Translations under genes and position numbers: made by a program
In this document: piece by piece, positions 7,204 to 26,696 of the stretch
How positions within the stretch are numbered: position 1 is the stretch's first letter
Layout of the letters: each line of letters begins with the position of its first letter
Source: Nostoc punctiforme PCC 73102
Lineage (GTDB): Bacteria; Cyanobacteriota; Cyanobacteriia; Cyanobacteriales; Nostocaceae
Length of the DNA: 32,000 bases
Reading direction: 5' to 3'
NCBI RefSeq assembly: GCF_000020025.1
Contig: NC_010631.1
Location: 60,001-92,000, forward strand
The notes under the pieces: model-generated
What the model was told of the DNA's origin: nothing
What the model saw: only the letters and a program-made list of their open reading frames with translations
The model's database searches: none

Positions 7204-10200
7204 TTAGGAGAACTCCATCGGCAACACCTCTTCACTTAGCAAGCTGTAAAATTCAGGAACAAGAGATTCCACAAGTCGCAGTTCATTTGCCGCGATCGCT
7301 TCAAGTTCCAGCACCGTCTCCCAACGCAAATCCTCAACCCATCGCTTGAGAATGCCTTTAATTGCGTCTACTCCACGAGAAATACCAGAGCGAAGTATTT
7401 CTACGCAATGAAGTAGAGTAATCCGGTCTGTTTGGGGCGACTCAAATTCGGTAGTATCCTCCCCTTGGCAATGGGAGTTCCCTATAGCATTAGGGGGGGG
7501 TGTGGATACGGCCTGCTGATTGGGGTTTACATTATACGCAGCAGGGGTTTGAGCAGCATAAGAGGTTCGATTTTCTTTTTGATTACGCTTCGTTTCACGA
7601 TGAGCAATTACATGCATTGCAAATTCTAATTCCTCTTTAGATAAAGAAAAAAGTTTCACCTGTTGCCCCCGTTTACCTTGCTTGCGGAAAGTCAACTTTA
7701 GCCCCAGCTGCTCTACTAAAGTCGCCAGCAACCAAATAGGTTTACAGTCTAGGGGAATAGTAAACCCAAGAATTGCTTTAACATGAGCAGCACAATGTAT
7801 AGCGATCTCCGTCATCTTGAGTAAGGTGGAATCGTCGGCAGTAACTTCATCACCCGCAACTAAAGAAGTGAGAATCTGATGCAGCCCCAGGTTAAATCTA
7901 GCCAACCATCGAGCTGAGTAATTGCCCCAGTCGATGCACAAAGGTAGATTGTCGCGCTCGGTGCGGTCTTTTTGGGTGACAATTGTTGGTGGCGTAGGAT
8001 AAGTTTGCCCAGTTTTGGGGTCAGTAAACGATTCTTCGGGTGGGGCTAAAATGGCCTCAAGTCCAGCAATTGCCCTAATTAAGCGACCACCTTTATCCAT
8101 TTCTACGAGTGATTCGGTTACTTCGATGCCGTAAGAATCAGAAATGCGGAATTTTTCGCATTCAAAAATTTCATTAGGGTCAAGGTAATCTTTGCTCTGA
8201 CGGGCACGGTACTCGCTCAAAGTAATATTCTTAGCCTTGGCAACAGCCGAATTGTGGGCACTATCCAAAGCTTGTGCTGCTGCTTTTAGACTTTCAAGAG
8301 ATTGAGGATCTGAATCACTGCCCACATATATAAATGTATTGCCCATTTCGGTGAGCAGCGATCGCAGATCATCGCGGAGATTATTGAGAGAATAGTGGCG
8401 GTTAGCCATGATTTGGCAGTAAGCCTCAAGCGCCCAATCTTTCTCTGCGCCCCTTGAACCTGTTTTTCGGTCGATCCGTAACAGAAAAGCAGTCATTTCA
8501 TTGGTTTGGAGCGAGCGTTCCTTGATTTTGGATGCGTTTGTATCTTTGTAACCAAAGGGAGGACGCTTTGCCACCCAAATATGAAACGGAACTTTCGGGC
8601 GATAGCGGTACAACTGCTGGGCGCACTCAGTTGCAGTTTGGGAAACCGCATGAAATACCCCAAATACTAAGTCAAAATGATACTGGGAAATATCTACACC
8701 AGTCCCCAGGCTGGGAGAGGTGAACAAGGCATCAAAGTTTTTGACGGCGTTGGTGATATCTTTAATGAAAGCGACATTCTCTTCACTGCCAGAATTATCG
8801 GAGTGAATAGACCAAATGCGCCATTTTTGTGGTGTATGGGATGGGTCAGAGTTAGATTGTTCGCACTTAATAGTAAAGGATTTGTCGAGTTTCTTGATGA
8901 AACGCTTAGAGTCACTTGCAACCATGACTTTCAGACCTTGCATGAGCGCCGCCGAGATTTGGGCAACTAGGGCGCTTGAGTTAATGCCTTCGTACCAATA
9001 AATTGTGCGTGAACCGTTTCGCCACTCGTTCTTGATAATGTACGGGATTTCATCTGTTGGTCGCATGGAGCGAAAGAAATCCACGGTCAAATCATCCATG
9101 TGTGCATCGGCAATCACCACTAACGGTGCGTTATACACTATATATTCCAGTACCTCCAAAATTGCTGCACGGTGCTGTTTGCAAGTATTACTGTGTAGTA
9201 GGTGGGTGAGGTATTGGCAGGCTTCATCTATAAATATGCAGCCGTAGCTGAGAGACTGAGTATTCAGCTTATGCAAGCTGTCAATGGTAATACTAAGGGC
9301 TTGTGCCTGGGCTAAACCTGTGTAACCCAAGTCTGAGTACATCGCCGTCTGCAAGCGTTCGGCAAGATTTTTGAGCAAATTTACGCGATGCCCATTGTTG
9401 AGAAATCTGGCGTGAGGATTTTGGTCACGCCACCAGCGCATTAACTCGGTTTTCCCTGTACCCATATCGCTCCAGAGTACAACCAGTCCTTTCTCTGGAA
9501 AACGGAAAGATTTTTTGGGATTTTGGGTACTGGGTTTGGGGTTAAAGGAGCTAGAATCTGTTAACTCTTGTTTTCCTTCTCCCTGCCCACAGCTTGTAGA
9601 GCTAACACAAGGTGTGAACAATTGCTCTTGTGAAATATCGTAAAGTGGCGGGACAGACGAACATTTTTCCTCCAGATCCGGAATGCAGAGTGCTTGGGTC
9701 AAATATTTAATATTGACTGTGACATCCGGTTTGTACTTAGAGAGTCCCCATTTCTTAGCTCGATACGAGCGCTGGTAATCAGCAAGTGATTTAGCATCAT
9801 CGATGATTGCGGTCAGTAGAGCGTTAGCATCTTCGCCCCGCGCCACAACAAAATCATCTACACCTTTCTCTGGGCCTGGCAACAGCGCAACTTCACAAGT
9901 ACAGCCTACTGCTTCAATCGCTTTGGCAGTGCGAACAGTGGCTTGAAACACCGACCAACGAGTTTTCAATTTAGTTTCGTAGTCGAACAAAATAATGAAC
10001 TTGCGTCCCGCCTGAGCCATTGGTACTAAGTCAGGATGCAGTCGCTCATCGAAATCTTGTTTGCCCACGCGCCCATTCCAAATTCCTGGAAGTGCGATCG
10101 CTACAAACCCTAAACTCAGCAAGCAAGCGGCTTTCTTCTCACCCTCGCATAAGATAATCGGAATCTCTGGATGCTGCCGAACCCACTCCCAGAATATTAA

Positions 10201-10677
10201 TGGATTGAGTTGATCCAGCAAGCGCAATGCTAAAAGCGAATGATAGCGCTTAATTAAATAACGCTTTGCAACTTTGCCCCAGATGGGGTTAGCGACATCA
10301 AAGTAGGTAACGCGGTTGGCTGTCTTAGGTGGTGACTCGTATTTAACTGGTTTACAGGAGTGCCAATCAAAGCGCGGGAAGTTCGGCTTAATCCGCCCCC
10401 AATCCATCGGTTGCCAGTTTTTGAATGGGTCAAGTGATTGAATCCACGTCCCACCCAGTAATAGGTGCTGATACATTTTGATGTATCCATCTGTTACCCG
10501 ACCCGCATTCTTGCGTGGGATTTTATCAGATATGAACAGGAAATCATAAACTGATTCTCCCTCTACATGGAAAAAGTTGCGCTTAATCAACGCCGGATGA
10601 ATGGCGCTACCAGCTAACAACTCATGGTATTCCGCTGCCGTGAGGTTGTTTGGGTATTCAATTGTCGCTGAATTCAT
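7204..10677 (-). CDS. Plasmid replication protein, CyRepA-like: N-terminal DUF3854/Toprim-type primase domain + P-loop helicase domain
   Basis: Toprim-like IILCEGEKKAACLL and GVDDFVV, then Walker A VVLWSDMGTGKTE and Walker B CIFIDEACQYL. The 1157-aa size and domain order match the cyanobacterial CyRepA family as I remember it. Confidence 0.8.
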   Translation of the reverse strand: MNSATIEYPNNLTAAEYHELLAGSAIHPALIKRNFFHVEGESVYDFLFISDKIPRKNAGRVTDGYIKMYQHLLLGGTWIQSLDPFKNWQPMDWGRIKPNFPRFDWHSCKPVKYESPPKTANRVTYFDVANPIWGKVAKRYLIKRYHSLLALRLLDQLNPLIFWEWVRQHPEIPIILCEGEKKAACLLSLGFVAIALPGIWNGRVGKQDFDERLHPDLVPMAQAGRKFIILFDYETKLKTRWSVFQATVRTAKAIEAVGCTCEVALLPGPEKGVDDFVVARGEDANALLTAIIDDAKSLADYQRSYRAKKWGLSKYKPDVTVNIKYLTQALCIPDLEEKCSSVPPLYDISQEQLFTPCVSSTSCGQGEGKQELTDSSSFNPKPSTQNPKKSFRFPEKGLVVLWSDMGTGKTELMRWWRDQNPHARFLNNGHRVNLLKNLAERLQTAMYSDLGYTGLAQAQALSITIDSLHKLNTQSLSYGCIFIDEACQYLTHLLHSNTCKQHRAAILEVLEYIVYNAPLVVIADAHMDDLTVDFFRSMRPTDEIPYIIKNEWRNGSRTIYWYEGINSSALVAQISAALMQGLKVMVASDSKRFIKKLDKSFTIKCEQSNSDPSHTPQKWRIWSIHSDNSGSEENVAFIKDITNAVKNFDALFTSPSLGTGVDISQYHFDLVFGVFHAVSQTATECAQQLYRYRPKVPFHIWVAKRPPFGYKDTNASKIKERSLQTNEMTAFLLRIDRKTGSRGAEKDWALEAYCQIMANRHYSLNNLRDDLRSLLTEMGNTFIYVGSDSDPQSLESLKAAAQALDSAHNSAVAKAKNITLSEYRARQSKDYLDPNEIFECEKFRISDSYGIEVTESLVEMDKGGRLIRAIAGLEAILAPPEESFTDPKTGQTYPTPPTIVTQKDRTERDNLPLCIDWGNYSARWLARFNLGLHQILTSLVAGDEVTADDSTLLKMTEIAIHCAAHVKAILGFTIPLDCKPIWLLATLVEQLGLKLTFRKQGKRGQQVKLFSLSKEELEFAMHVIAHRETKRNQKENRTSYAAQTPAAYNVNPNQQAVSTPPPNAIGNSHCQGEDTTEFESPQTDRITLLHCVEILRSGISRGVDAIKGILKRWVEDLRWETVLELEAIAANELRLVESLVPEFYSLLSEEVLPMEFS

Positions 10678-10898
10678 CGGTTCTCCCCTCGGGATTCCTT
10701 AGAGAAAACTCTTTCAAGCTGCGAAACTCTTGCTCTAGCCTGGACATTCCGAAAATTTCCCTTCGTCACAGCACAAAATTGCCGTGCGAAAGCTGCACTC
10801 GACCCCATGCGCTCTAACACTGCGCTCTTGGGGCGTTCTCTATTTGTCATGATATCTTCCCCTGATAACTCGGTTGACAAGTTCAGAGGGGGTTGCAT
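10674..10898 (-). CDS. Small ORF translationally coupled (ATGA overlap) to the replication gene
   Basis: Its stop TGA overlaps the rep ATG (plus-strand tcat at 10674..10677). ATG at 10898, with an alternative ATG at 10850 (MTNRERPKSAVLERM...). No recognisable motif. Confidence 0.5.
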   Translation of the reverse strand: MQPPLNLSTELSGEDIMTNRERPKSAVLERMGSSAAFARQFCAVTKGNFRNVQARARVSQLERVFSKESRGENR

Positions 10899-11701: not shown

Positions 11702-13144
11702 ATGAATTCAAGCCAAGTTTTAGACGTAAAAAGAGTATTAGCTGTATTAGAAGAACAAGTATTTCAATCTACGGGAAGGTATTTAACAGAAGTAGAAAAA
11801 GTTCTTATTAAGGGAGTTTGGGATAGTAAAGATTATAAAGAGATGGCAAGTGATTCGGGGTATAACGCATACTATTTGCAGCAGAAAGTAGCTCCACCAC
11901 TATGGAGTATGCTTTCAGTAATTATTGGTGATGGAGTGAAAGTAACAAAAATATCTTTGAAATCTATTTTGCTTAAGCTAGCAAAGAGCGATTATCGGAA
12001 GGAAGAGGCATCCAGATTGGATAACGATAGTTTCGTTGGCAATATTAGAATTCATGGGGAACTACCTAAAATAAAATCTTTTTATGGACGAAAGGATGAA
12101 ATTAACTATTTTAAGAAACAAATTACTCTATTTAAAGAACGCTGTATAGTTTTTACTGGAGTTGGAGGAATAGGAAAAACTTTATTAGCCTCTAGATTGG
12201 TTGAAGAAATAACTTTTGATTCTTTAAGTAGTATATATGAATGTATAATCTGGAAAACAATTAATCATTCTTTGTCAATTGATGAGTTAGTCATTGATTT
12301 AAATAAAATTTTTCAAGTAGACATAGAAGCAAGTGAAAACTCTTTTATAGATAGCATATCTTTACTATCAAAACAGCTTCACTTACATCGTTGTCTACTA
12401 GTAATTGATGGATTTGAAAAGCTATTGTTAGCCGATGATTTTGGAAAAAGATTACAATATGAAAAATTCCTTTTAAAACTTACAGAAGGGAAGCATGAAA
12501 GCTGCATTATTATAACAAGTCAGTTGCCTTTAAAAGAATTTGCTTCTGTGACTACAAAACTACCTATTCGCTCTTTCAAATTAGAAGGTTTAGATGTAAA
12601 CGCTGGAATGCAAATATTACAAGAAAAAGGTTTAACTGGACAGGAATGTAAGCGATTAATTGAAAATTACTCTGGGAATCCATCAAGTTTAGAAGCGTTG
12701 GCTGATAGAATTAATCGTTTTTTTGAGGGGAGTGTGAAAACATTTTTTAGATATCAAACTACTATGATTGATCCTCAACTTGAAACAATGCTACATCAGC
12801 AATTTGGACAAATTGGACTTTTAAGTAATCTTCAAAGGCAAATAATGATTTATTTGGCAGAAGAAATGTCAGAAAACTCGACTCCTATTCAATTCTCTAA
12901 ACTCATTGATAATTTAAAAGAGCGAGTAGATTTCAAGTTGTCAGTTTTTGAACTAATAACAGCAATAGAAGTTTTAGAACAACGCTCGTTAATTGAAATT
13001 GCTGGTAAATCAAACAAACGAGAAGCTAGTTATAGTTTACAAGTATCTATTAAGAAGTATATTTTAGTTGATCCATTGGGATTAGTGCATAAAATACCAG
13101 ATACAATACAAACAAGGGAAGTTACCTTGTGGGCTACTGCATAA
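11702..13144 (+). CDS. STAND-class P-loop NTPase (NB-ARC/NACHT-like) with the N-terminal HTH-like module common in cyanobacterial STAND proteins; no sensor repeats
   Basis: The N-terminus LTEVEKVLIKGVWDSKDYKEMASDSGYNAYYLQQKVAPPLWSMLSVIIGDGVKVTKISLKSIL matches the module seen at the front of many Nostoc NACHT/NB-ARC/WD40 proteins. Walker A FTGVGGIGKTLL, Walker B CLLVIDGFEKLL, and a winged-helix-like C-terminal part. Confidence 0.8.
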   Translation: MNSSQVLDVKRVLAVLEEQVFQSTGRYLTEVEKVLIKGVWDSKDYKEMASDSGYNAYYLQQKVAPPLWSMLSVIIGDGVKVTKISLKSILLKLAKSDYRKEEASRLDNDSFVGNIRIHGELPKIKSFYGRKDEINYFKKQITLFKERCIVFTGVGGIGKTLLASRLVEEITFDSLSSIYECIIWKTINHSLSIDELVIDLNKIFQVDIEASENSFIDSISLLSKQLHLHRCLLVIDGFEKLLLADDFGKRLQYEKFLLKLTEGKHESCIIITSQLPLKEFASVTTKLPIRSFKLEGLDVNAGMQILQEKGLTGQECKRLIENYSGNPSSLEALADRINRFFEGSVKTFFRYQTTMIDPQLETMLHQQFGQIGLLSNLQRQIMIYLAEEMSENSTPIQFSKLIDNLKERVDFKLSVFELITAIEVLEQRSLIEIAGKSNKREASYSLQVSIKKYILVDPLGLVHKIPDTIQTREVTLWATA

Positions 13145-15087
13145 ATCCTCTTTGTACCCAACGTTATAATCCTGATAGCGCTGAAAATTGTTTAGCATGT
13201 GGAAATCCATTGATAATAAACGGGCGTATTCGTTTGCTACGCCCGTTGCGTTCCTTGGAGCAAAATCCATATACTTACACAGATGTCTTTGAAATTGAGG
13301 ATATTGGCACAGAAGAACATCCTCAGCCTCAAATAAGAGTAATGAAAGTATTAAGATGGATTGATGATTCTAAGTTAGTTGAGCTACTTAAAAGAGAATC
13401 ACTCATATTACAAATCTTAGACCATCCTGGAATTCCCAAGTCTAATAGGGAAGATTATTTCACATTTAGGCTGAATGATAATCTTCTAGAACTACATTGT
13501 CTAGTTATGCATAAGTTTGAAGGAGAGAATTTAACTCAGTGGGTACAATCTTATGGACGAATTAGCCAAGAAATGGCTTATGAATGGTTATTGCAGTTGA
13601 TGGAGATTCTTGATTTAGTTCATCGGTCTGGTTTCTTCCACAGAGATATCAAACCAGAAAACATTGTTCATCAACCCGACGGGAATTTAGCACTTGTTGA
13701 TTTTGGTGGAGCAAGACAGCTTAGTAGAACCTACTTTGCCAAAGTCAGTACCAGTGGAGGAACTACTACAGGATTCGGTAATGGTTACGAAATAACTGCT
13801 GTTAGGACAGCTTGTTACTCTCCCTTAGAGCAAATTCATGGACAAGCCGTACCACAGTCAGACTTTTACGCTTTAGGTAGAACTTTTGTTTACTTAGTCA
13901 CAGGTATTTCTTTAATTGAAATCATAATGGACGAGCAGACAGGAAGACTAATTTGGAGAGATAAAGCACTTCACATAGATAAATTTCTGGCTGATTTACT
14001 TGATGATATGATGGCTCCTTTTGTTGGGCAGCGCCCACAAAGTACTCAAATAATAATACAGCGTTTGGAGCGCTTACCTAATCAATCAAAGTTTAATCGA
14101 GTAATTAAATCAAAGCCGTTTCAACTGAGTGTGTTTGTATTAGGTTTATTAAGTATTGTTGGTTTGATATATGCATCCCTACCTCTAGTAGCAAAATATT
14201 ATTTAGATTCCGGTAAAAAAGCTTATAAAGAAAATCAAATTGACCAAGCTGAGAACGATTTTCAAAAAGCAGTATATTTGAATACTAGCTTAAAATACAC
14301 AGTAGCAGATTATTTTTTAAATCAAGGTAAAGAAGCTTATAAAGAAAATAGGATTGCTGATGCTGAAAAAGACTTTCAAAGAGCAATAAAGTATGGACAT
14401 AATTTAAATAATTCAGTCTCAATTTTTTACTTTGAGAAGGGTTTACAGCATCAAAATAACCCTAAAATTGCTAGAAAAAATTACGAGCTAGCTATAAAGT
14501 ACAACCCGAAAGACGATACTGCGTATAATAATTTAGCAATTGCGTGTCAGCAGTTATATGACTATAATTGTGTTAACAAAACTTACGAAATAATTTTTAA
14601 GTTAAAACCTAATAAATGGGAATCGCATTACGGATTAGGTGATTTTTATGATGAACAGGGAGAATATGATTTAGCAGAAAAGCAATATGAAATTGCTATT
14701 AGAAGTAGCGATCAAGCTATATTTGCTGTTGCGGCTTTAGCAAGATTGAAAAATAAAAAAGGGGATCATACAGCAGCAGCTACTTTAGCTTTAAAAGGTT
14801 TGCAGAAAACTAACAATCGGGAATTACAAGCATCCCTGTATAAAGATTTAGGATGGGCAAGGTTAATGGAAAATAAGTTAACTGAAGCCGAAAGATATCT
14901 AGAAAAAGCAACAAAGTTAGATAGCGAAAGAACAGATGCATATTGTTTGCTATCTCAAATAGAAGAATCATTAGGTCAACTTAATTACGCCAGAGCTTAT
15001 ATAGATGCTTGTATCTTGACTAAATCTAGCCTACCAGAAGTGTTTCGCTGGAGACAAGAACTGCTAGATCGGATACTTGATAAATGA
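13129..15087 (+). CDS. Ser/Thr protein kinase with N-terminal 4-Cys zinc ribbon, one TM helix and a C-terminal TPR region
   Basis: CINPLC...CLACG zinc ribbon. Kinase motifs RVMKVL (Lys), HRDIKPEN, VDFGGAR and YSPLEQ. TM helix FQLSVFVLGLLSIVGLIYASLPLV, followed by ~290 aa of TPR-like repeats. The GTG start at 13129 overlaps the upstream stop by 16 nt. Confidence 0.9.
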   Translation: MGYCINPLCTQRYNPDSAENCLACGNPLIINGRIRLLRPLRSLEQNPYTYTDVFEIEDIGTEEHPQPQIRVMKVLRWIDDSKLVELLKRESLILQILDHPGIPKSNREDYFTFRLNDNLLELHCLVMHKFEGENLTQWVQSYGRISQEMAYEWLLQLMEILDLVHRSGFFHRDIKPENIVHQPDGNLALVDFGGARQLSRTYFAKVSTSGGTTTGFGNGYEITAVRTACYSPLEQIHGQAVPQSDFYALGRTFVYLVTGISLIEIIMDEQTGRLIWRDKALHIDKFLADLLDDMMAPFVGQRPQSTQIIIQRLERLPNQSKFNRVIKSKPFQLSVFVLGLLSIVGLIYASLPLVAKYYLDSGKKAYKENQIDQAENDFQKAVYLNTSLKYTVADYFLNQGKEAYKENRIADAEKDFQRAIKYGHNLNNSVSIFYFEKGLQHQNNPKIARKNYELAIKYNPKDDTAYNNLAIACQQLYDYNCVNKTYEIIFKLKPNKWESHYGLGDFYDEQGEYDLAEKQYEIAIRSSDQAIFAVAALARLKNKKGDHTAAATLALKGLQKTNNRELQASLYKDLGWARLMENKLTEAERYLEKATKLDSERTDAYCLLSQIEESLGQLNYARAYIDACILTKSSLPEVFRWRQELLDRILDK

Positions 15088-15120
15088 TAAGATGCTCAAA
15101 CAAATTATGTTTGTAAAACA

Positions 15121-16125
15121 ATGAAAAAGCTGATGTTTTTTGGGGGAATGTGCTGTTTAACTTCTCTAATACTAATTCATCTACCATTGCTAGCAAATGT
15201 ACCGCTCATAAGAGTAAGAAGAAATCAGGTTCATTGTGATCCACAAATGGGAAGAATAATAAGTAAGGGTCACAAGCACTTGTCAGCAGGGAGCTTAATT
15301 TGTAAGGGAGATACGATAGAAGTTGTGAATGGTGATTATGTAGAATTTTTATGCTTTAGTTCTGGAAACATTTTAAATTTATCTAGTGGAACTATTCCTC
15401 TTGATAAATGTGCAGAACCTGACGAAGCCTTATCCACTTGCAATCCAACCAATACTAATGCGTGTCACATACGAAAAGGTGGCACAGAAGGGAGCGATGA
15501 GCCAACAATCATTTCTCCTTATAGCACATCAACATTGAATTCCCGTCCAGAAATAACTTGGACTGCTGTTAAGGGTGCTACTTCTTACAAAGTCAAAGTA
15601 AAAAGTTACGAGTTTGGATGGGAAAAAGTTGTAAATCAAACTCGGCTTGCCTACCCAAGTGATGAAAAAGAATTTCAGCCGGGTACTCCATATACAATAG
15701 ATGTCTTTGCATATATTGATGGTCAAGCTTTTAGCTATGATGAAACGTTTGTGGACGTATTGTCTGTAGCAAAGCAAGAACAAATTGCACAAAAGATTAA
15801 ACGCATCAAAGACTTAGGGCTACCTCCAGATGAAACTATTCTTGACGTAGATGCTATTTATACGGCAGAAAATCTTTTAAATGAAACAATTGAGATGTTA
15901 AAAATGGCAACAGCAACTAATAGCCAAAATCCGACTCTTTACAGAGTACTGGGCGATCGCTATCTCTTGGCCAAGTTGCCAAAGGAGGCGAAATCCGAAT
16001 ACATCAAGGCATCTGAGTTAGCGAAAAGCAGCAATAATTCCAAAGAGTTCCAAAAAGCCCAATCAGGGCTACAAGTAGTGGAATTTTACAACCAGCTTCC
16101 AACCAGGAGGAACCCACCCCAATAA
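15121..16125 (+). CDS. Secreted Cys-rich protein with a DUF928-like/FN3-like beta domain and a TPR-like C-terminus
   Basis: Hydrophobic N-terminal signal MKKLMFFGGMCCLTSLILIHLPLLA and seven Cys in the next ~100 aa. The segment RKGGTEG...IISPYS..RPEITWTAVKGATSYKVKVKS...FQPGTPYTIDVFAY...AIYTAENLLNE parallels the DUF928 layout as I recall it. The C-terminus is TPR-like (YRVLGDRYLLAKLPKEAKSEYIKASEL). Confidence 0.6.
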   Translation: MKKLMFFGGMCCLTSLILIHLPLLANVPLIRVRRNQVHCDPQMGRIISKGHKHLSAGSLICKGDTIEVVNGDYVEFLCFSSGNILNLSSGTIPLDKCAEPDEALSTCNPTNTNACHIRKGGTEGSDEPTIISPYSTSTLNSRPEITWTAVKGATSYKVKVKSYEFGWEKVVNQTRLAYPSDEKEFQPGTPYTIDVFAYIDGQAFSYDETFVDVLSVAKQEQIAQKIKRIKDLGLPPDETILDVDAIYTAENLLNETIEMLKMATATNSQNPTLYRVLGDRYLLAKLPKEAKSEYIKASELAKSSNNSKEFQKAQSGLQVVEFYNQLPTRRNPPQ

Positions 16126-18590
16126 TAAGCCTTCTTATATTTAGGATTTGACAGTAAACTTAATTGCGCCTGACGTAGTGCTTCTGCTTTTGGCAAGCCA
16201 TTGTTCAAACCTTTATAAAATTCTTGCATAAGCAAAGCGGTAGAATCGGCATCCACGCGCCACAAAGTAGCAACAGTACTACGCGCTCCAGCTTGTGCAG
16301 CCATTCCTGCAATACCCATTGCTGACTGCTTGTTGCCTTTAGCTGTTTCGCAGGCGCTGAGAACAAGTAACTCAATTGCATCTTGACTATTTTCAGTTTT
16401 ACCTCTGATTAAGCTGTCAAAGTCTCTAATATTAATTAGCTTGTCATAGGCAACCAGTACTGTTTTGAGTGGGTCAGAACTAAATTGACCGTGGGTAGTA
16501 ATATGTACAATAGGAAAATTATTTTGAGTTAGTTCTTCTTTAAACCTTTTAAGGGTAAACTTCTTGTCTAACAAGGCAACTGACGATTTAGTTTGTTTTT
16601 CTACATTTTCTATTTCTTGTTTAGATGGGAGCAAATTCTCCATATTTTTAGGTGCATTTGGATCTATAGAACTGGGGCTTAGTTTTGATAGTCCAGCTAT
16701 TAAAGCTATCATCTGGTTTTCATGTAAGACTCTAGGTTGTCTAATTCTGGAACCTAAAGTTTCTGCAATACTGTAACGCTCTATTAAATAATGTTTTCCA
16801 TCATATAACAATGCCATTGGTATGCTTTGGAAAGATTTATCTAAAGTGAATACGAGTGTTCCTGATAGGGGTAGATATGTTTTTATTGGTGCAATTAGCT
16901 TTTCATAAATTACTTGAGAAGAAGTAGTAATGCTACTTTCGCCTACTTCAGAAAAATTTTCATTTTGTAAAGCTTCTAAAAGATGATCTATCTGGAATCG
17001 AACTAGTTTAGATTCAATAGAATGGTGGTGAAGTGAGCCATCTGTTGACTGAGCAATTACTTCTATAGTATCCCCTAAATCAATAATGTGAATTACTGTT
17101 GGGGCGCTCTTGAGGTTCTGAAGCTGATTCAAAGCAACAAGGTCAAGCTTGCCACATCTGAGAAAGTTTTCTAAGCGTGCTATCTGCAATCCTTCATTTA
17201 TCTCTATTACTCTTTTTAAATCAGGATTAGGTGATGTTAAGAGTAATCGCATATAATTACGATATGTCGGCTCCATTTCTGACTGAAAAGAGAACTGCAA
17301 ATCTCCGTTAGTTGACAAAAGACTATCACGCACTTCAGTCATGTTTGCGATCGCAGCATTATAGTTCTGAATCGCTAACTCAGTTTTTCCCTGCTTTTGG
17401 TAAATTAGTCCTAACTGCTGCTGCCATTCGTAAGCAATATCCGAAGCCCGAATTGATTGAGCGAATCCTAAAGCCTTCGTAAAATATGCCTGTTTTTGTT
17501 CTGTTTGAGTTGATACTTTACCCAAAGTACCAAAACTATAGGATAACCATCGGATACTATTAATAGTTTCAGCCATTTTCAATGCTAATTTAGCATATCG
17601 AATCGCTACTGATTTCAATTGTTCATCTGGGATCTGGCTGAGGTTATTAGCAAAATTCAACCGAGCATGAATAGATGGCTCAAGTGATAACTCCAAAAAG
17701 GCAGAAGAATTGCCATCTATTTGATTTACCAATGCTCTAATTTGTTGATTAACTTTCTGATGGATGTTCGCTTGATTTGGTTGATGACTGAGCCATTTTT
17801 CCCAACTGATCAGTAAAGTTAAGTGATTCAACTGAGCTTGCAGTTTAGCTGATTTTGAGATATTTGGGATGTTTTCTAGTGTTTGGTAATACCAGAGTGA
17901 TTTTTGCGCTTTTTGTGGAATAATGTTAGCAATCTGCTCTCGAAAAAGTGGTTCCTCTATCCAAGAATATTTATCTTGTAATTGCTGATAAATTGTCTGT
18001 TCAATATTACCTAGAGACAGATAAATCCCACTAATCTTTGATGAAGATACAAGTTTTGCTAGCGTTAACGTTTCTTGTAGAACTGTTTCAGATTCATTTA
18101 ACTTTCCCAAAATCCGCAAGACTTCTCCGAGATTCTGTAATCCAAGTAAGTTAACCGATGTTGCTTCCTGCTTACCAATTAATGTCGTGAGTTGCTCTTT
18201 TTGAGTAAGAGCAGGTTGCTGCAAAGTCGTGTCGCAAATACCTAGAATTGTATTAAAGTTTAAAGCTTCTAAAAGTGTATTGCAAGCTTGTTTATGTAAT
18301 CCTAATGCTTGAAAAGCAAGGTTTTGATTAATCAGGCTTTCCGTAATTCCCTCTTGGTCGTTTAGTTGGCGATATATTTTGGTAGATTCCTGCCAAGTTT
18401 TTAAAGCTTCATTCGCCTGATCTAGAGCTAATTGTTCGTGACCTGATGAAGTCAGGGATGCCGCTTGATTTTTGAGAAATTCTTTTTCTTTTTTTACAGT
18501 CTGGGCAGGGGAAGAGGATTGAATTAAAATTAAAGACAGCCCTAGAATGCCTGAGAAAAGATATTTAAAGCAACATTGAAGTGAGATCAT
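16086..18590 (-). CDS. Secreted TPR + CHAT domain (caspase-fold) protease
   Basis: Signal peptide MISLQCCFKYLFSGILGLSLILIQSSSPAQ, N-terminal TPR-like helices, and a CHAT His/Cys dyad VHITTHGQF and LVLSACETAKG with the YYWGGFLLVG tail. Starts 12 nt after the upstream gene's stop. Confidence 0.9.
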   Translation of the reverse strand: MISLQCCFKYLFSGILGLSLILIQSSSPAQTVKKEKEFLKNQAASLTSSGHEQLALDQANEALKTWQESTKIYRQLNDQEGITESLINQNLAFQALGLHKQACNTLLEALNFNTILGICDTTLQQPALTQKEQLTTLIGKQEATSVNLLGLQNLGEVLRILGKLNESETVLQETLTLAKLVSSSKISGIYLSLGNIEQTIYQQLQDKYSWIEEPLFREQIANIIPQKAQKSLWYYQTLENIPNISKSAKLQAQLNHLTLLISWEKWLSHQPNQANIHQKVNQQIRALVNQIDGNSSAFLELSLEPSIHARLNFANNLSQIPDEQLKSVAIRYAKLALKMAETINSIRWLSYSFGTLGKVSTQTEQKQAYFTKALGFAQSIRASDIAYEWQQQLGLIYQKQGKTELAIQNYNAAIANMTEVRDSLLSTNGDLQFSFQSEMEPTYRNYMRLLLTSPNPDLKRVIEINEGLQIARLENFLRCGKLDLVALNQLQNLKSAPTVIHIIDLGDTIEVIAQSTDGSLHHHSIESKLVRFQIDHLLEALQNENFSEVGESSITTSSQVIYEKLIAPIKTYLPLSGTLVFTLDKSFQSIPMALLYDGKHYLIERYSIAETLGSRIRQPRVLHENQMIALIAGLSKLSPSSIDPNAPKNMENLLPSKQEIENVEKQTKSSVALLDKKFTLKRFKEELTQNNFPIVHITTHGQFSSDPLKTVLVAYDKLINIRDFDSLIRGKTENSQDAIELLVLSACETAKGNKQSAMGIAGMAAQAGARSTVATLWRVDADSTALLMQEFYKGLNNGLPKAEALRQAQLSLLSNPKYKKAYYWGGFLLVGSWL

Positions 18591-18602
18591 TTTTATATCT
18601 TT

Positions 18603-20858
18603 TTACCACTGAGATCCTGAAAAACAAGAACTTGCAGACAGTGAAGCATTATCCCAGGTTGGATTTGCTTGGTCTGTTGTCAAAACTAAATTTCCTTGAG
18701 AATCCCGAATCAAAACGTTGGCTTCTATGATTTGTGTAGCTTGGTTACTTCTTAATGATTTTGGATTATGTGAATTATTCAAAGCTGGAACTGGAACAGA
18801 GTTACTTTGCTCAACATTGTTAAACATCAGGTTATTAGGCTTAGATTGGAGATTGCGAGTACTACTAACTCGAAAACTATTTACTTCTGTGCCTGCTCGT
18901 GCCTGACAAACTGGGGTGATTTCAGGAGTTATTGGAATTACTTCTGCTTTTAGTTGAGTAGGGTAAATGTTAGTATCAGCGATGTTATATTTAACAGTAC
19001 CGTTAATTCCGTACTTGGAACTAGCTGTTATTAAGCTATTAAGGGAAAGGAATAGTCCCCTAGCATTAATTGTGATATTCCCACCACGGCCCTCAAAGGC
19101 ATTTGCGGTGATGCTGCTATTTTTTATTGCAACTAAGATATCTGTGTTGATAGTGATGTTGCCGCCGTCGCCATTACCCCCAGCAGTCGCAGTAATGATA
19201 CTGTCACGTAATTGTAAGTCACCAGAGTGTAAGAAAATGTCGCCTCCTTCGCCCTTGGTGCCGCCTTCTGTGCCAGCTGTGATAGTACCTCTGTCTAGAT
19301 TGATACTGTCTGCGTTGATTCGGAGGGTTCCTGCATTTCCTTGTCCTGGCTGAAAGTTGAGATTTTTTGGAATTTTTTCACCACCAATATTTACTCTCCC
19401 ACCATCAGTGACAGTTAATCGTTCTGCTTCGATTGTCAGATTTCCGGCCTTTCCAGTTCCTCCAGTTCGAGCTGATATTCTGCTAGGAGAATTACCAGTT
19501 AATGACTTTCCGGTTACTTGCACTTCTTCGTCAGCAGTTATAGATACGTTGCCTCCCGAACCCTGCCCAAATGTGCCTGATGATATCACTCCTCCAGAGC
19601 GTAGACTTAAGCGCGCAGTTTCAATCTTGATGTTACCGCCAGAACCGGTAGATCCTCGTTGGGCCAAACTTGTTATGGAACTGCCTGCATTCGCTGTTGG
19701 TTTTCGCAGCACTTCTACTGAATCATGAGCTAAGACCTCTATGGAACCAGCATTTCCGAAGCCATACGTACCAGCAGCGATCCCTGCTCCATCCCGGATA
19801 TTTAACCGCCCAGTTTCAATATTGATGTTGCCACCAGATCCGGTAGCTCTTGGGTAAACTAGGCTCGATATACCAGTGTTGAAAAACGAATCAACTTCTG
19901 GTAATCCCACTAGGTTCACTGAATCTGAAGCATTAATTTTCAATGTTCCCCCCGTTCCTGCTCCTAATGTGCTGGACTCAATCTGAGAACCACCGTCTAG
20001 CATTAGCTTCATGGCTTGTATTTGAATATTGCCACCACCATCACCACTGGCATCAACTGCTGCTGCTCCAGACAACTGGATCTCTCCAAAGGCTGAGATG
20101 CCTGAATATCCCAACGTCCAGCCTTTATCTGTAGGAATCAGGTTGACCAAACCCGCTCCAGCCACGCTGCCTAATTCAATCTGTCCCCCTGTTGTTTTAA
20201 GCGTTCCACGTGAGAGTAATATATCACCGCCCACCAAAGCTAAGGTTTGATTTGGCTGCACGCGTAGACCAGAACTAGTATCTATGAGGTCTGAAGTTTT
20301 TCTTATACCTTGACCGTCTCCAAAGACGTGAATATTTCCAGCATTTGTCCCAAATCCTAATCCCACAGGCACGCTCACTGTCAACAGAGGTTCTGCACCA
20401 CTAAGGGGTTTAGCATCGAAGGAGATGCCATCAGCAAATTTAATATTACTAGCAGTAGTGCCGAAGAACGAGCCGCCAATATTCAGTGAAGCATTCGGCC
20501 CAAAAATAATCCCATTGGGATTAATAAGAAATACGTTGGCTATGCCGTTAGCTCGAATTAAACCATCAATATTAGATATTGAGCTACCCGTCACTCTTGT
20601 CAAAATGTTTTGGATGTCTAGGGCATTTTTGAAGTAAACTGTGCTTCCTGTGGGCACAGAAAACTGTCCAAAGCTATGGAACAAATTGCTTCCGAATTGG
20701 GTTCCTCCCGTTATCGCACTGGTATTATTACCCTCTCGTGTGACGCTGGAGTTAACTCTTAGGGTTGCATCGGGAACAATTTGTGCCGCAATTGGCTCCC
20801 AAGGCAATAGACAAAACAAGGTGCTGCCCTTGATAAGCCAGGATAAAGCTTTTGTCAT
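18603..20858 (-). CDS. TpsA-like exoprotein: filamentous-haemagglutinin N-terminal (TPS/haemagg_act) domain + parallel beta-helix repeats
   Basis: Signal peptide, then the TPS motifs NLFHSFGQFSV and FLINPNGIIFGPNASLNIGGSF. Downstream are repeated G-rich units (TGSGGNINIETGRLNIRDGAGI / TGSGGNIKIETARLSLRSGGVI / GRGGNITINARGLFL). Confidence 0.9.
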   Translation of the reverse strand: MTKALSWLIKGSTLFCLLPWEPIAAQIVPDATLRVNSSVTREGNNTSAITGGTQFGSNLFHSFGQFSVPTGSTVYFKNALDIQNILTRVTGSSISNIDGLIRANGIANVFLINPNGIIFGPNASLNIGGSFFGTTASNIKFADGISFDAKPLSGAEPLLTVSVPVGLGFGTNAGNIHVFGDGQGIRKTSDLIDTSSGLRVQPNQTLALVGGDILLSRGTLKTTGGQIELGSVAGAGLVNLIPTDKGWTLGYSGISAFGEIQLSGAAAVDASGDGGGNIQIQAMKLMLDGGSQIESSTLGAGTGGTLKINASDSVNLVGLPEVDSFFNTGISSLVYPRATGSGGNINIETGRLNIRDGAGIAAGTYGFGNAGSIEVLAHDSVEVLRKPTANAGSSITSLAQRGSTGSGGNIKIETARLSLRSGGVISSGTFGQGSGGNVSITADEEVQVTGKSLTGNSPSRISARTGGTGKAGNLTIEAERLTVTDGGRVNIGGEKIPKNLNFQPGQGNAGTLRINADSINLDRGTITAGTEGGTKGEGGDIFLHSGDLQLRDSIITATAGGNGDGGNITINTDILVAIKNSSITANAFEGRGGNITINARGLFLSLNSLITASSKYGINGTVKYNIADTNIYPTQLKAEVIPITPEITPVCQARAGTEVNSFRVSSTRNLQSKPNNLMFNNVEQSNSVPVPALNNSHNPKSLRSNQATQIIEANVLIRDSQGNLVLTTDQANPTWDNASLSASSCFSGSQW

Positions 20859-21099
20859 AAATCATGGTAAAAGTTTCTCGGTTGGTCTCTGAATTATTTT
20901 TAGTACAGACTTGCACCCTGCACCCGAATGATTACCAATTATACAGATTAATAGTAACGGTAGCGTCTTGTCAAATTGGATTGGAGACAGAGGCTTTCCT
21001 CTAGTAGTAAAGCTTTTCTCTAGTAGTAAAACTGTTAATATTTACTAAAATCCGAGCGAAAGTGATCGGGAGTAAAATACGTTTGTGGATTTATCAGTG

Positions 21100-21876
21100 A
21101 TGAACAGAAAACGTAGTGAGTCCTTTAATGAAGTTGCAGAAATCTATGATGCAGCACGCCCTAGTTATCCATCTCAATTGATTGAAGATGTAATTGAGAT
21201 GGCTAATCTTACGGATTCAGCTTCAATTTTAGATATTGGAACCGGGACAGGTAAGGGGACTGTTCCATTTGCTGAAAAGGGCTACGCTATCTACTGTTTA
21301 GAGCCAGGTGAAAGACTTATTGCAATAGCATCTCAAAATATGCGCTTATATCCAAAGGTGATATTTGAGACAGTTACTTTAGAGGATTGGAACTTACGCC
21401 CAAGCGCCTTTGATTTAGCAATATCTGCCCAAGCTTTTCATTGGGTAAATCGTGAAAAAGGGTATCCAAAAGTTGCACAAGCTTTAAAAGAAAAAGGTTA
21501 TATTGCGTTTTTTTGGAATTTCTCTATTTTACCAGATACTTCAATATTTCAGGCGCTCAAAGAAACGTTTCAAAAATATGTACCTACAATATCTAATGCT
21601 AAACCATCCTCAGTTGAATCACTAATAAAAAAAAGAGAAAACTGGATATTAAATAGCTTTTATTTCAAAAACCTAGTGGTCAAAAAATATCCTTGGTCTA
21701 TTAATTATGATGCAGAAGGATATCTAGGTCTTCTGAAAACTCAAACTGCTTATCAAAAATTTACTGGAACTGAAAAGCAGGATTTTTCTGATGCTATTAT
21801 ACAGATATTAAATGCTCACGGAGGATATGTTACTAAACCCTATTTATCGGTTCTTTTCTTTGCTCAAAAAATTTAA
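21100..21876 (+). CDS. Class I SAM-dependent methyltransferase
   Basis: Motif I ILDIGTGTGKGT and a downstream acidic/aromatic pattern (FDLAISAQAFHWV). ATG at 21100 is preferred over GTG at 21085. Confidence 0.85.
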   Translation: MNRKRSESFNEVAEIYDAARPSYPSQLIEDVIEMANLTDSASILDIGTGTGKGTVPFAEKGYAIYCLEPGERLIAIASQNMRLYPKVIFETVTLEDWNLRPSAFDLAISAQAFHWVNREKGYPKVAQALKEKGYIAFFWNFSILPDTSIFQALKETFQKYVPTISNAKPSSVESLIKKRENWILNSFYFKNLVVKKYPWSINYDAEGYLGLLKTQTAYQKFTGTEKQDFSDAIIQILNAHGGYVTKPYLSVLFFAQKI

Positions 21877-24421: not shown

Positions 24422-26605
24422 TCAATTAACCTCGAAAGCGATCGACAAAGTAGCCATATCAGAATTGCTCACTGGTGTGGCTACAATACCACCACCACGT
24501 ACATCTCTCAAATCATTCAGCAAATCACCAATCACTTCATCTGGACTTGTGGATGAACCTTTTAACTCTACTACTCCAGCATCACGCTTTTGTTCTGCTG
24601 CTAAAGCTCTCATTGTTTTGACAGCATTCTTTAGTGGTTTGCGACTGACAATAATTAATGCTTCCCCACTACCTTTCTCGATCGCCTGTAATTTTAGCTC
24701 TTGTGGATTGCCAACTACTAGTGTTTGCTGTGGCGCTAATTGCATTGACTCCTCAGGTGCTGACCATTTATAGGGAAATATCACCAATAAATCACCACTG
24801 GAATCAAATAGCAAGATAGAAATATAGACAGAAGTCGATTCATTATTGGTCACTTGAAATTGAAACAGTTGTTGCAGAGGTAATTTGTGCGAATAAATTT
24901 TTTGTGAGACTTGACGATTCTTTTGGCTCCGTGATGTGGCAGTTTTAGCTATAATTTTGCTAGGTTGCTCTACTAAATTCAGGCAAACTTCCACATCTAG
25001 TTCTGACGAATTGGTATTCAAAGTTTTTTTGAGAATACGAGTTGCTAGCAAAGACTTGAGTTTAGGTTCTAAACGCTGGACAGCATCTTTTACTGCTTCT
25101 CTTGCGTCACCAAAAGATTGTAATACTAGTTCCTGTCCTGCGGTAAACAAACCAAGACTATTAACCACAGGCAAGTTTTCTGTAACTTGTTGCTGCAATT
25201 GTCTTCGATAGCTATCTGTCATGCGACTGAAGATGTATTGCACACCATTTGGATATGGTGGTTTTTGATTCTGCGCTGTTATAGCTGCGATACGATTGAT
25301 AGCTTCTACAAATTCTTTTGCTGCATTTGTATCACCAGCTAGAGAAGGATCTAAACCAATACTTAACTTTAAGTCAGCCGGAATTACACGAGTTGATTCT
25401 TGCAACAGCATTCCTGGACGCAGAGAATTTATCCCTCTGTTGTCTACCAGTTCTGCTTCTGCTATTAAGCCACGACGAGGGGATATCAACTTTACGGTTG
25501 CTGAGGTTTGTCCTTGATTGTTGATGACTGTAAAAGTAGCTCCTGGTGTAAATGCTTCTAAACTTTCTTTGTCTATTCCTCCCAACCATAATGTTGCTTT
25601 TTTACCTTCACTTTTAATAACAACTGCATCAGTAGGGAAAACTTTATTTTTAATAAAATAGACTGGTTTATTTTCATCACCATCTATTAAAGGCTCTTGC
25701 CGTGAAAGTGATTTAATGCTGGAAGTAATTTGAGAAATCATACTCCCAGCACTACCAGTTTGTTGCCAAAGATACTGCGTCATCAAGTAAGTAAATGCAC
25801 CAGCCGAAAAGCCATCAAAAGTGGCATCTGCTGCTATTTGTTCCCTTTTAGCCGCAGCAAAAACTATTCCTTTTCGCTCACTAGCACAGCGAAGACTGAT
25901 AAGTTTTTCTAAGGGGATATTCAACTGTTTGATCCAATGTTCTTGATAAGCAATTTCCTCTGGAGATGGCTGCAAATTATCATTAGATGCAGCACGCACA
26001 ATAAAGTTACCTCGTGTACCACCGCCGGAGAAGCAACTGTCTAAAACTACAGTGACATTTTCGGTTTTTAAAGCCGATATTAACAAAAACAGGGTACGTC
26101 CCATAATGTCCTGTGTGACACCATTGGCACCATCATCAGATGGTACTAGGGTGCTGTTATAGTTATCATTTCTGCATTGCTGAATGGGGTCAGGGTCTGG
26201 TAGTCGAGAACCATGACCAGAAAAATGGAAAACTACTACATCTCCTGGTTTAGCTTGCTTAATTAGATGTTCTTCAAATGCTTCTAGAATATTTTTTCGG
26301 GTGGGTTGTTTATCGGCTGGGTCACTTGTTAATTTCAGGATATTGTTGGGTTCAAAACCAAAGCGATGGGTTAAAAGTTTTTCCTGTAAATCTACATCGG
26401 TGATACATCCTCTCAAGTTATCACCTCTCTCATTGTTTAGATAATTATTAATTCCCACTAAGAGTGCTAATTTTCGAGGGGTGCTTTGTGATAAAACTTG
26501 AGCGTAGCGGTTTCCCTTTTGCATGATATCGATTTGGCTTAAACCCAAAGTGGCAAAGGTTGAAGAAGCAAATTGGATAAAATGACGGCGTTTGATAAGG
26601 TACAT
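24422..26605 (-). CDS. Orthocaspase (peptidase C14 caspase domain) with a twin-arginine signal and C-terminal DUF4384-like domain
   Basis: Tat-type N-terminus MYLIKRRHFIQFASSTFATLGLS. Caspase His/Cys dyad FHFSGHGS and VVLDSCFSGGG. DUF4384-like YISILLFDSSGDLLVIFPYKW. ATG at 26605 is preferred; the track start at 26653 is TTG. Confidence 0.9.
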   Translation of the reverse strand: MYLIKRRHFIQFASSTFATLGLSQIDIMQKGNRYAQVLSQSTPRKLALLVGINNYLNNERGDNLRGCITDVDLQEKLLTHRFGFEPNNILKLTSDPADKQPTRKNILEAFEEHLIKQAKPGDVVVFHFSGHGSRLPDPDPIQQCRNDNYNSTLVPSDDGANGVTQDIMGRTLFLLISALKTENVTVVLDSCFSGGGTRGNFIVRAASNDNLQPSPEEIAYQEHWIKQLNIPLEKLISLRCASERKGIVFAAAKREQIAADATFDGFSAGAFTYLMTQYLWQQTGSAGSMISQITSSIKSLSRQEPLIDGDENKPVYFIKNKVFPTDAVVIKSEGKKATLWLGGIDKESLEAFTPGATFTVINNQGQTSATVKLISPRRGLIAEAELVDNRGINSLRPGMLLQESTRVIPADLKLSIGLDPSLAGDTNAAKEFVEAINRIAAITAQNQKPPYPNGVQYIFSRMTDSYRRQLQQQVTENLPVVNSLGLFTAGQELVLQSFGDAREAVKDAVQRLEPKLKSLLATRILKKTLNTNSSELDVEVCLNLVEQPSKIIAKTATSRSQKNRQVSQKIYSHKLPLQQLFQFQVTNNESTSVYISILLFDSSGDLLVIFPYKWSAPEESMQLAPQQTLVVGNPQELKLQAIEKGSGEALIIVSRKPLKNAVKTMRALAAEQKRDAGVVELKGSSTSPDEVIGDLLNDLRDVRGGGIVATPVSNSDMATLSIAFEVN

Positions 26606-26696
26606 AGCAGAATTTTTAACTCTTTGAAATTGATAGAAATTAAGTAAGTTCAAGAGAAGTTTATTTTCTTAATAAACTTTGATAAATGGATATATT

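Follow-up and report, generated by a model that had tools for sequence, protein, structure and literature searches.

What does the gene for an exoprotein of the two-partner secretion (TPS) type do on a plasmid where no gene for its TpsB transporter accompanies it? The question is raised by a stretch of 32,000 nucleotides from Nostoc punctiforme PCC 73102 (NC_010631.1, positions 60,001 to 92,000), here called the window, in whose own numbering positions are given unless another locus is named. The window is a Nostoc plasmid segment, of which positions 15000–21000 are 98.3% identical to plasmid pC052_D of Nostoc sp. C052. Near its middle lie a gene for a TpsA-type exoprotein, a gene for a caspase-like protease with tetratricopeptide repeats (TPR-CHAT) and a gene for a protein of 334 residues, P334. 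These three genes are part of a larger unit, a cassette conserved on cyanobacterial plasmids, and the window carries a form of it that lacks tpsB. With a confidence that falls a little short of even, we propose that the cassette is a surface-to-cytoplasm signalling device built on regulated proteolysis.

An earlier note, made from the sequence alone, had called three open reading frames (ORFs) here as a DUF928-like, a TPR-CHAT and a TpsA-like gene, and had taken them for three of the four parts of a DUF928/CHAT/TpsB/TpsA cluster that recurs in cyanobacterial genomes. All three ORFs are found where it had placed them.

15121..16125, plus strand: P334 gene, 334 aa
16086..18590, minus strand: TPR-CHAT gene, 834 aa
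18603..20858, minus strand: tpsA gene, 751 aa

The TPR-CHAT label holds (CHAT domain PF12770, E = 1.2e-51, with weak TPRs), as does the TpsA-like label (a full TPS domain, PF05860, E = 3.2e-64, and TIGR01901). The DUF928 label does not, and P334 fills the DUF928 slot. The cluster itself exists, for example on Planktothrix agardhii plasmid p1 and on pC052_D, and the genes of the window share its layout. The spacing of 12 nt claimed for the tpsA–CHAT pair was measured as 12 nt from the tpsA stop to the CHAT start, in the same frame, and this short gap makes co-transcription of the two genes plausible. The P334 and CHAT genes are convergent and their 3' ends overlap by 40 nt.

A conserved plasmid cassette

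The unit extends upstream of P334, where two further genes belong to it. Beyond them lies the gene for a plasmid replication protein.

7204..10677, minus strand: plasmid replication protein CyRepA1 (NF042913, 321 bits against a cut-off of 200; Pfam DUF3854)
11702..13144, plus strand: helix-turn-helix (HTH)-NB-ARC ATPase of the STAND class, 480 aa (NB-ARC, E = 6.8e-8; also NACHT and nSTAND1)
13129..15087, plus strand: Ser/Thr kinase with a four-Cys prefix, 652 aa (Pkinase, E = 2.4e-19), overlapping the NB-ARC gene by 16 nt

The order (CyRepA1)–NB-ARC–kinase–P334, convergent with CHAT–(TpsB)–TpsA, is found in about 65 loci (numbered with an L below) and is matched by the window. It holds throughout the 54 loci that were annotated by tblastn, which comprise contigs from one genome per species, plasmid hits and two contigs encoding P334 relatives, and it is also present on Acaryochloris marina pREB6, Leptolyngbya boryana pLBX and Nostoc PCC 7120 pCC7120alpha. 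The full cassette has six genes: those for the NB-ARC protein, the transmembrane kinase and P334, and the convergent tpsA, tpsB and CHAT genes. The window has the five-gene form without tpsB. Homologues of P334 occur on 52 plasmid records, which are cyanobacterial without exception.

The cassette is tied to the plasmid backbone. A CyRepA1 homologue is within reach in 37 of the 40 loci with 3 kb or more of sequence past the NB-ARC gene (median gap 1167 bp), and outside Nostocales the cassette adjoins ParB genes (Acaryochloris and a Chroococcidiopsidales contig). Several copies may share a genome: four large plasmids of C052 (NZ_CP040273-6) carry one diverged copy each, and multiple cassettes are also present in N. 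flagelliforme FACHB-838 (L021, L031, L035 and L059) and Nostoc sp. FACHB-892 (L045, L049 and L055). The copies within one genome are about 35–45% identical to each other. On pCC7120alpha (L074, positions 7615–10827) a TpsB-less cassette lies beside CyRepA1. A TnpB element interrupts its kinase gene, leaving an ORF of 50 aa with the four-Cys prefix and a kinase ORF, and the same TnpB recurs between the rep and NB-ARC genes.

The missing transporter

The earlier note had found no TpsB gene in the 32 kb and had allowed that one might lie immediately outside. The absence stands: a tblastn search of the window with cassette-type TpsBs gave a best E value of 0.6, and all ORFs longer than 236 aa are otherwise assigned. 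A gene just beyond the edge was rejected as the explanation, since the window runs 11 kb past tpsA, since the complete 278.8 kb sequence of pC052_D, the closest complete replicon, has no TpsB at E<=1e-3 despite holding two tpsA–CHAT pairs, and since TpsB is absent from 33 of the 42 loci whose sequence continues for 3 kb or more past tpsA. The pC052_D result and the locus count together show that the absence is real, old and common. A missing cis TpsB is the usual state in Nostoc and is not peculiar to the window.

Where the transporter is present (POTRA_2 plus ShlB), it lies between CHAT and tpsA, as in a metagenome contig (L006) and in L007, L056, L061, L063, L065 and L066. The TpsB-bearing cassettes include those of pC052_B, pC052_C, Acaryochloris and Leptolyngbya and the genome-survey loci L056 and L061. 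In L057, a truncated Pseudanabaenales locus in which tpsA is cut off, TpsB adjoins CHAT, and in four loci it is displaced by 1.5–4.3 kb. Four strains (C052, C057, UHCC 0302 and N. flagelliforme CCNUN1) encode paralogous cassette TpsBs on co-resident plasmids, which in C052 are pC052_B and pC052_C; in two further strains none turned up on the plasmids. In other systems some TpsBs serve more than one TpsA (PMC5422565), and TpsB promiscuity is likewise described in PMC10449530.

P334 is not a DUF928 protein

The DUF928 assignment of P334 was rejected, the HMM search giving no match to PF06051 even at E<=10. In the same search a genuine DUF928 protein from Planktothrix scored 153.5 bits (E = 7e-45) against a gathering score of 26 bits. 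None of 26 members of the P334 family matches DUF928 at E<=1, their weak matches being to TPR and fn3, and hhalign gives a probability of 0.65% for the P334 family profile against the Planktothrix protein. P334 is a separate, unnamed family that sits in the DUF928 slot of an analogous cassette.

The protein consists of a signal peptide, a six-Cys beta domain (residues ~38–118), a linker, an Fn3 domain (~128–213) and three TPRs (216–324). The six cysteines (C39, C61, C78, C97, C107 and C115) are invariant in an alignment of 26 members, and the flexible linker is conserved as KGG..E...EPTIISPY. An AlphaFold2 (AF2) model (pLDDT of 80.2, pTM of 0.78) shows the Cys-rich beta domain, Fn3 and the three TPRs. 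Foldseek relates the model to the C-terminal domain of MtxA, to Fn3 domains and to the class II TPR chaperones SycD, IpgC and PcrH of type III secretion systems, which are peptide-binding proteins. One Leptolyngbya member has no TPRs, so the core of the family is taken to be the Cys-rich domain plus Fn3. A signal-like hydrophobic segment is present at the N-terminus of 62 of 63 orthologues. Relatives fall into 52 clusters in a word-indexed search, and a profile search of 1.84 billion representatives retrieved 197 at E<=1e-30, most of them full-length (300–370 aa).

The CHAT protein

The CHAT domain spans residues 557–832 and covers 287 of the 289 profile positions. H696, H700 and C747 (HITTHG ... 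SACE) are invariant in 50 orthologues, and the catalytic His and Cys are thus intact. In 51 of 52 orthologues the N-terminus has a signal-like hydrophobic segment which, as in the P334 orthologues, ends in A-x-A-like sites. The 834-residue protein is predicted from these features to be an exported caspase-like protease. A sequence search of the PDB with it gave no match. The overlap of the P334 and CHAT genes is kept at about 35–40 nt in most cassette loci.

In L019 (Nostoc sp. PA-18-2419, positions 13395–13470) the tpsA stop is replaced (CAG TGG TAA to CAT CGG GAA), and tpsA and CHAT are therefore read as one in-frame fusion of 1590 aa, which still holds the internal CHAT start and signal peptide. 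The fusion is known from this single draft genome, in which a sequencing error is possible.

TpsA and its C-terminal tail

TpsA is made up of a signal peptide, the TPS domain, Gly-rich repeats of beta-helix type and a C-terminal tail.

20019..20786, minus strand: TPS secretion domain, TpsA residues 25–280 (252 of 252 profile positions matched)
18606..18938, minus strand: C-terminal tail, residues ~641–751, about 110 residues

The TPS domain is the part of the exoprotein that is recognised by TpsB, and this is its sole known role. In the window TpsA it is accompanied by a match to the adhesin N-terminal domain TIGR01901 (E = 2.7e-26), by the motif NPNG at residue 113 and by a signal-like N-terminus. 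Its identity to the corresponding domain is 69% for the TpsB-linked TpsA of L006 and 50% and 48% for those of pC052_C and pC052_B. The sole result of a PDB search with TpsA was a weak match to EtpA. The subgroup to which the window belongs has the shortest TpsAs of the cassette (750–753 aa against 790–900 aa).

The earlier note had seen no toxin-like end on this 751-residue protein, and none is recognisable: there is no VENN or VDNN motif and no recognisable toxin domain, and the last 132 residues are without a Pfam match. A toxin system of the contact-dependent growth inhibition (CDI) type was rejected on the absence of VENN and the conservation of the tail.

In all cassette TpsAs the last beta-helix-type repeat is followed by a C-terminal tail of some 110 residues that matches no Pfam family. 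In the family it carries two motifs, F.V..G.GG(I/L)P..P and (I/V)VEAQGW....G.V.L.A, of which the window TpsA has degenerate copies, and it is bracketed by C651 and C745, the only two cysteines of the mature protein. The same tail architecture is found in the TpsAs of DUF928-type clusters. A profile search with the tail returned 11 short fragments and is uninformative on its distribution.

The kinase and the NB-ARC protein

The kinase has, in order, a zinc-ribbon-like prefix, the kinase domain (HRD at 171, DFG at 191), a transmembrane helix (329–356) and TPRs (448–627). The helix is its single hydrophobic segment, and the TPR domain is predicted to be extracytoplasmic. The protein scores 30.3 bits against NF045510 (4Cys_prefix_kin, cut-off 24), and its residues 1–363, that is, the prefix and the kinase domain, match the PADLOC family PD-T4-6 at 1.2e-89. 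The NB-ARC protein has a Walker A motif (GVGGIGKT) at residue 153 and a winged helix (MCM4_WHD, 3e-6) in its C-terminal part. It lacks a repeat sensor at the C-terminus and, having no hydrophobic segment, is predicted to be cytoplasmic, as is the kinase domain. From the signal segments of CHAT, P334 and TpsA and the transmembrane helix of the kinase, three proteins and one domain of the cassette are predicted to meet in the periplasm.

Selection and mosaic evolution

The ratio of non-synonymous to synonymous substitution rates (dN/dS) of the five cassette genes is 0.10–0.46. For TpsA it is 0.23–0.31 against close TpsB-less orthologues, and for the TPS domain within the TpsB-less lineage it is 0.20, values that place the TpsB-less tpsA under purifying selection. 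One value, 0.84 for CHAT of the window against L022 (696 non-synonymous changes), clashes with the 93% identity of the pair and was set aside as a threading artefact. The cassette proteins diverge much faster than the neighbouring RepA, and adjacency to rep survives at 35–50% protein identity.

Comparison of the loci segment by segment reveals mosaics. In L026 and L004 the kinase TPRs, P334, CHAT and the TpsA tail are 54–91% identical to those of the window, and other parts are replaced (NB-ARC and kinase domain 37–60%, TpsA shaft 32–39%). L033 is 95–100% identical to the window except in three parts of TpsA: the tail with the last repeats (81%), the TPS domain (57%) and the shaft (36%); CHAT is 95% identical there. 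In L039 the opposite half is conserved. The block of kinase TPRs, P334, CHAT and TpsA tail is kept together in L026, L004, L033 and L002/3, and the flanking parts are exchanged: the kinase domain with NB-ARC to one side, the TpsA shaft with the TPS domain to the other. By these identities the predicted periplasmic parts travel together, and the part exchanged most readily is the exposed TpsA shaft. This pattern, which physical linkage alone could also produce, is compatible with functional coupling of the predicted periplasmic parts.

A proposed pathway

In the pathway that we propose, TpsA would cross the inner membrane by Sec and the outer membrane through a paralogous TpsB acting in trans. 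Its Cys-bracketed tail would stay in the periplasm, by analogy with the FhaB prodomain, where the TPR-CHAT protein would bind or cleave it and P334 would act as adaptor, chaperone or regulator. The periplasmic TPR domain of the kinase would read this event and the kinase would relay it to the cytoplasmic HTH-NB-ARC regulator. Candidate outputs are defence, cell-fate control, plasmid-linked regulation and surface remodelling.

We infer the coupling of tail and CHAT from the tail motif and two cysteines that are common to the TpsAs of P334-type and DUF928-type cassettes, which share only CHAT, TpsB and TpsA. The 12 nt in-frame gap and the one natural TpsA–CHAT fusion further point to such coupling.

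Several points weigh against this reading. The steps of the pathway are read from sequence and gene context, and the signal peptides from hydrophobicity alone. The NB-ARC protein is credited with an HTH from a precomputed match to PF26355 (HTH_VMAP-M9) at the N-terminus of a 34%-identical orthologue (L005); a scan of that orthologue with a local Pfam copy lacking this model gave a weak sigma70_r4 match only. The tail motifs are degenerate in the window subgroup (IIEANVL for VEAQGW, STRNLQSKP for G.GGIP.SP). The AF2 model of the tail is uninformative (pLDDT of 34), showing only a hairpin at the second motif, and the tail is probably disordered. Its dN/dS is 0.7–0.9, a value derived from 7–9 non-synonymous and three synonymous changes. 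The co-inheritance of tail and CHAT may stem from their physical adjacency alone. As to secretion in trans, the window TPS domain shares no more than 48–50% identity with those of the TpsB-linked TpsAs of C052, so cross-recognition is not assured, and a search of plasmids revealed no cassette TpsB for some strains with TpsB-less cassettes (N. edaphicum, the Lobaria cyanobiont and PCC 7120).

Alternative explanations

An anti-phage or conflict system is an alternative that we judge somewhat unlikely. The STAND ATPase and the PD-T4-6-like kinase would sense infection, and the exported CHAT protein and TpsA filament would be an envelope effector or decoy. Its anatomy overlaps with that of the proposed pathway; signalling would run inside-out and the purpose would differ, for example the shedding or remodelling of a surface protein used by phages. 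Conflict systems often contain STAND ATPases and CHAT or caspase proteases, and the kinase, besides its strong PD-T4-6 match, weakly matches the MAD6 and PglW kinases. The parts of the cassette diverge fast and are reshuffled between plasmids, the exposed TpsA shaft being the most variable, there are several paralogues per genome, and the window also holds a caspase and two more CHAT genes. PMC10811720 reports a phage-resistant Nostoc 7120 substrain mutated in a protein with a filamentous-haemagglutinin N-terminal domain; it also lists another Nostoc PCC 7120 case, with a mutation in the CHAT gene all2170. However, the PD-T4-6 models are broad kinase clusters, so that the match indicates a kinase family and not defence. 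PADLOC has no model for P334, CHAT or TpsA and matches the NB-ARC protein marginally (7e-4); the NB-ARC protein lacks a repeat sensor domain; and the protease is predicted to be exported, unlike known Avs or CHAT effectors.

The PD-T4-6 match and the fast diversification favour a conflict role, and the fixed place beside rep favours a plasmid role. A function in the plasmid backbone (surface or entry exclusion, competition between co-resident CyRepA1 plasmids, or a link, made by the HTH-NB-ARC protein, between an envelope signal and replication or copy number) seems to us doubtful. It draws on the CyRepA1 homologue near the NB-ARC gene in 37 of 40 loci (median ~1.2 kb), on the ParB neighbours outside Nostocales, on the FinO-like gene often found between RepA and NB-ARC, on the separate diverged copy on each of the four large C052 plasmids, and on an adjacency to rep that outlasts the divergence of the cassette proteins. 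That adjacency may nevertheless be inherited backbone order without a functional tie. None of the cassette proteins is known to act in replication, partition or exclusion, three of the 40 loci with enough flank have no RepA, and the spacer is without iterons. A combined version, similarly doubtful, is a plasmid-backbone pathway across the envelope in which the TpsA filament would report contact with a phage, neighbour cell or host, CHAT would cut the periplasmic tail, the kinase TPRs would read the cut and the HTH-STAND regulator would act on plasmid replication or cell fate, with one diverged copy per large plasmid.

It is improbable that this is an ordinary adhesin or exoprotein locus in which TpsA is a surface adhesin or matrix protein, CHAT merely trims it, and the genes for the kinase, the NB-ARC protein and P334 lie nearby without any connection to it. 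In its TPS domain and beta-helix-type repeats TpsA does resemble the adhesin EtpA, and the modifying enzymes beside tpsA, which vary between loci, include a glycosyltransferase; EtpC and HMW1C are glycosyltransferases that modify TpsA adhesins elsewhere. Periplasmic processing of TpsA proteins is also well known, for example in FhaB (PMC5422565). Mere neighbourhood nevertheless sits poorly with a gene order and convergent overlap kept across Nostocales, Acaryochloridales and Leptolyngbyales, with the near-constant length of that overlap in most loci, and with a DUF928-type cassette that repeats the plan of sensor, ATPase and small protein with unrelated proteins.

Decay after loss of tpsB, leaving a non-functional tpsA–CHAT pair that drifts to pseudogenes, is very improbable and largely refuted: the missing tpsB, the short TpsA and degenerate tail motifs of the window subgroup and the split kinase gene of PCC 7120 would fit it, but pseudogenisation was rejected on the five ORFs being intact in more than 12 near-identical genomes and in 33 TpsB-less loci spanning 35–99% identity and on the low dN/dS of all five genes and of the TPS domain, and the catalytic dyad and all structural cysteines are retained.

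Neighbouring genes

The spacer of 1 kb between the RepA and NB-ARC genes contains no direct repeats or iterons and only short inverted repeats. Promoter-like sites were not found above the expectation from shuffled sequence, and no Rfam family was found in the window. Cassette variants whose NB-ARC gene is read from the opposite strand (L004, L007 and other loci) have a FinO-like (ProQ/FinO) gene between it and rep; this position is empty in the window, which has a small ORF with a weak ProQ_C match at 4025–4390. A tyrosine recombinase gene (6364–7101, plus strand) adjoins CyRepA1 and has the same position in pC052_D, p057_A, pNe_5 and the UHCC 0302 plasmids.

On the other side, a methyltransferase gene adjoins tpsA, and its membership of the cassette unit is uncertain.

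21085..21876, plus strand: class I S-adenosylmethionine-dependent methyltransferase (Methyltransf_11 and Methyltransf_25, ~5e-12)

This slot for a modifying enzyme beside the tpsA start varies among loci (L002, L003, L004, L005, L008, L065, L066 and L074). Its occupants elsewhere are a glycosyltransferase, a monooxygenase, a TauD dioxygenase, a gamma-glutamyltranspeptidase, a cytochrome P450 and a VOC protein.

Near the start of the window (437–4083, plus strand) a RecD2-like helicase gene is apparently split, with HHH_RecD2 at 437–988 and AAA_19, AAA_30 and UvrD_C at 2458–4083; the parts are separated by an ISAzo13-family DDE transposase in two ORFs (1041–1637 and 1694–2272). Near its end a second group of caspase-like genes (24422–31823, minus strand) encodes a Peptidase_C14 plus DUF4384 protein (24422–26653), a CHAT protein (26697–29213) and a TPR-rich CHAT protein (29322–31823). 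All three have hydrophobic N-termini, and RRHFIQF in the caspase resembles a twin-arginine signal. This region matches a plasmid of Nostoc sp. HK-01 and not pC052_D.

Significance and comparison with known systems

Literature searches found no description of either the P334-type or the DUF928-type cassette. If the proposed signalling pathway is correct, it would add a new accessory logic to type Vb secretion, consisting of a dedicated exported caspase-like protease and a kinase/STAND relay; it would offer a first way into the function of the many orphan CHAT, DUF928 and 'filamentous haemagglutinin' genes that filamentous cyanobacteria carry; and it would place a fast-evolving, reshuffled module in the backbone of Nostoc's large CyRepA1 plasmids, those of symbiotic strains and of the model strain PCC 7120 among them. 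The analysis also defines the unnamed P334 family, with at least 197 clusters at 50% identity, outside current Pfam. A tpsA without cis TpsB is the rule in this lineage, which bears on the specificity of TpsB transporters.

Type Vb secretion as represented by FhaB/FhaC of Bordetella shares with the cassette a TPS domain with NPNG, a Sec signal and beta-helix-type repeats. A C-terminal segment that is proposed to be periplasmic and to be removed by periplasmic proteases is a further likeness, the FhaB prodomain remaining intracellular (Noel 2012, cited in PMC5422565). The window cassette differs in having no cis TpsB, in residing on a cyanobacterial plasmid and not on a pathogen chromosome, in a partner protease that is caspase-like CHAT and not of subtilisin, DegP or CtpA type, in a much shorter tail (about 110 against about 1200 residues), and in the attached kinase and STAND regulator.

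CDI systems (CdiA/CdiB/CdiI) are likewise built on a TpsA-type exoprotein. The C-terminal half of CdiA is held in the periplasm until triggered. In contrast, the window TpsA has neither the VENN/pre-toxin motif nor a polymorphic toxin, no CdiB is encoded, the next gene is for a protease and not for immunity, and the C-terminus of TpsA co-varies with the neighbouring CHAT gene instead of varying in the manner of a toxin.

The kinase and NB-ARC genes recall AfsK/AfsR of Streptomyces, in which a Ser/Thr kinase phosphorylates an HTH-NB-ARC transcription factor. Here, too, a Ser/Thr kinase gene adjoins and overlaps the gene for a small NB-ARC protein, whose N-terminus probably carries an HTH. That HTH is not of the AfsR type (a VMAP-M9-like match was seen in the orthologue only), the NB-ARC protein has no TPRs, and the kinase spans the membrane and has an external TPR domain.

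Two proteolytic relays invite comparison. Csx29 of the type III-E CRISPR system (Craspase) is a TPR-CHAT protease that cleaves a protein encoded next door and thereby switches a transcription regulator. The window protease, in contrast, is predicted to be exported and is neither cytoplasmic nor RNA-guided; the cassette CHAT has no Csx29 match, and the weak Csx29 match in the window belongs to the CHAT gene at 26697–29213. In cell-surface signalling of the FecA/FecR/FecI type, a relay of proteolysis that reaches the cytoplasm is set off by a component of the outer membrane; there is no anti-sigma factor in the cassette. As to PD-T4-6, whose profiles the kinase matches so strongly, that kinase is a stand-alone, single-gene defence system, whereas here the kinase has a transmembrane helix and an external TPR domain within a cassette of five or six genes, and the PADLOC profiles are broad.

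The closest parallel in plan is the DUF928-type cluster. On Planktothrix agardhii plasmid p1, tpsA, tpsB and CHAT are convergent with genes for DUF928, an AAA_35-CHASE2 membrane protein and an AAA_35 ATPase. On pC052_D (L068, 3710–19763) CHASE2, DUF1822 and sigma-70 factor genes are followed by DUF928, convergent with CHAT, a TPR protein and a TpsA of 1681 aa, without TpsB; a sigma factor thus stands in place of the ATPase. The N-terminal part of the TPS domain of this 1681-aa protein is 65% identical to residues 25–178 of the window TpsA.

Both cassettes have tpsA–(tpsB)–CHAT on one strand, a small exported protein convergent at the CHAT 3' end, and a membrane sensor and an ATPase behind it. 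The Planktothrix CHAT is 32.5% identical to that of the window over 864 residues, the Planktothrix TpsB is 42–51% identical to the TpsBs of P334-type cassettes, and the TpsA tails share the pattern Cys ... G.GGLP ... (A/E)(T/Q)GW..G.V.L.A ... Cys. They differ in the remaining parts, which are DUF928, CHASE2 and AAA_35 there and P334, the transmembrane Ser/Thr kinase with TPRs and NB-ARC here, and in the tie of the P334-type cassette to CyRepA1. The same plan with a different sensor, ATPase and small protein makes the window cassette a second variant of one architectural class.

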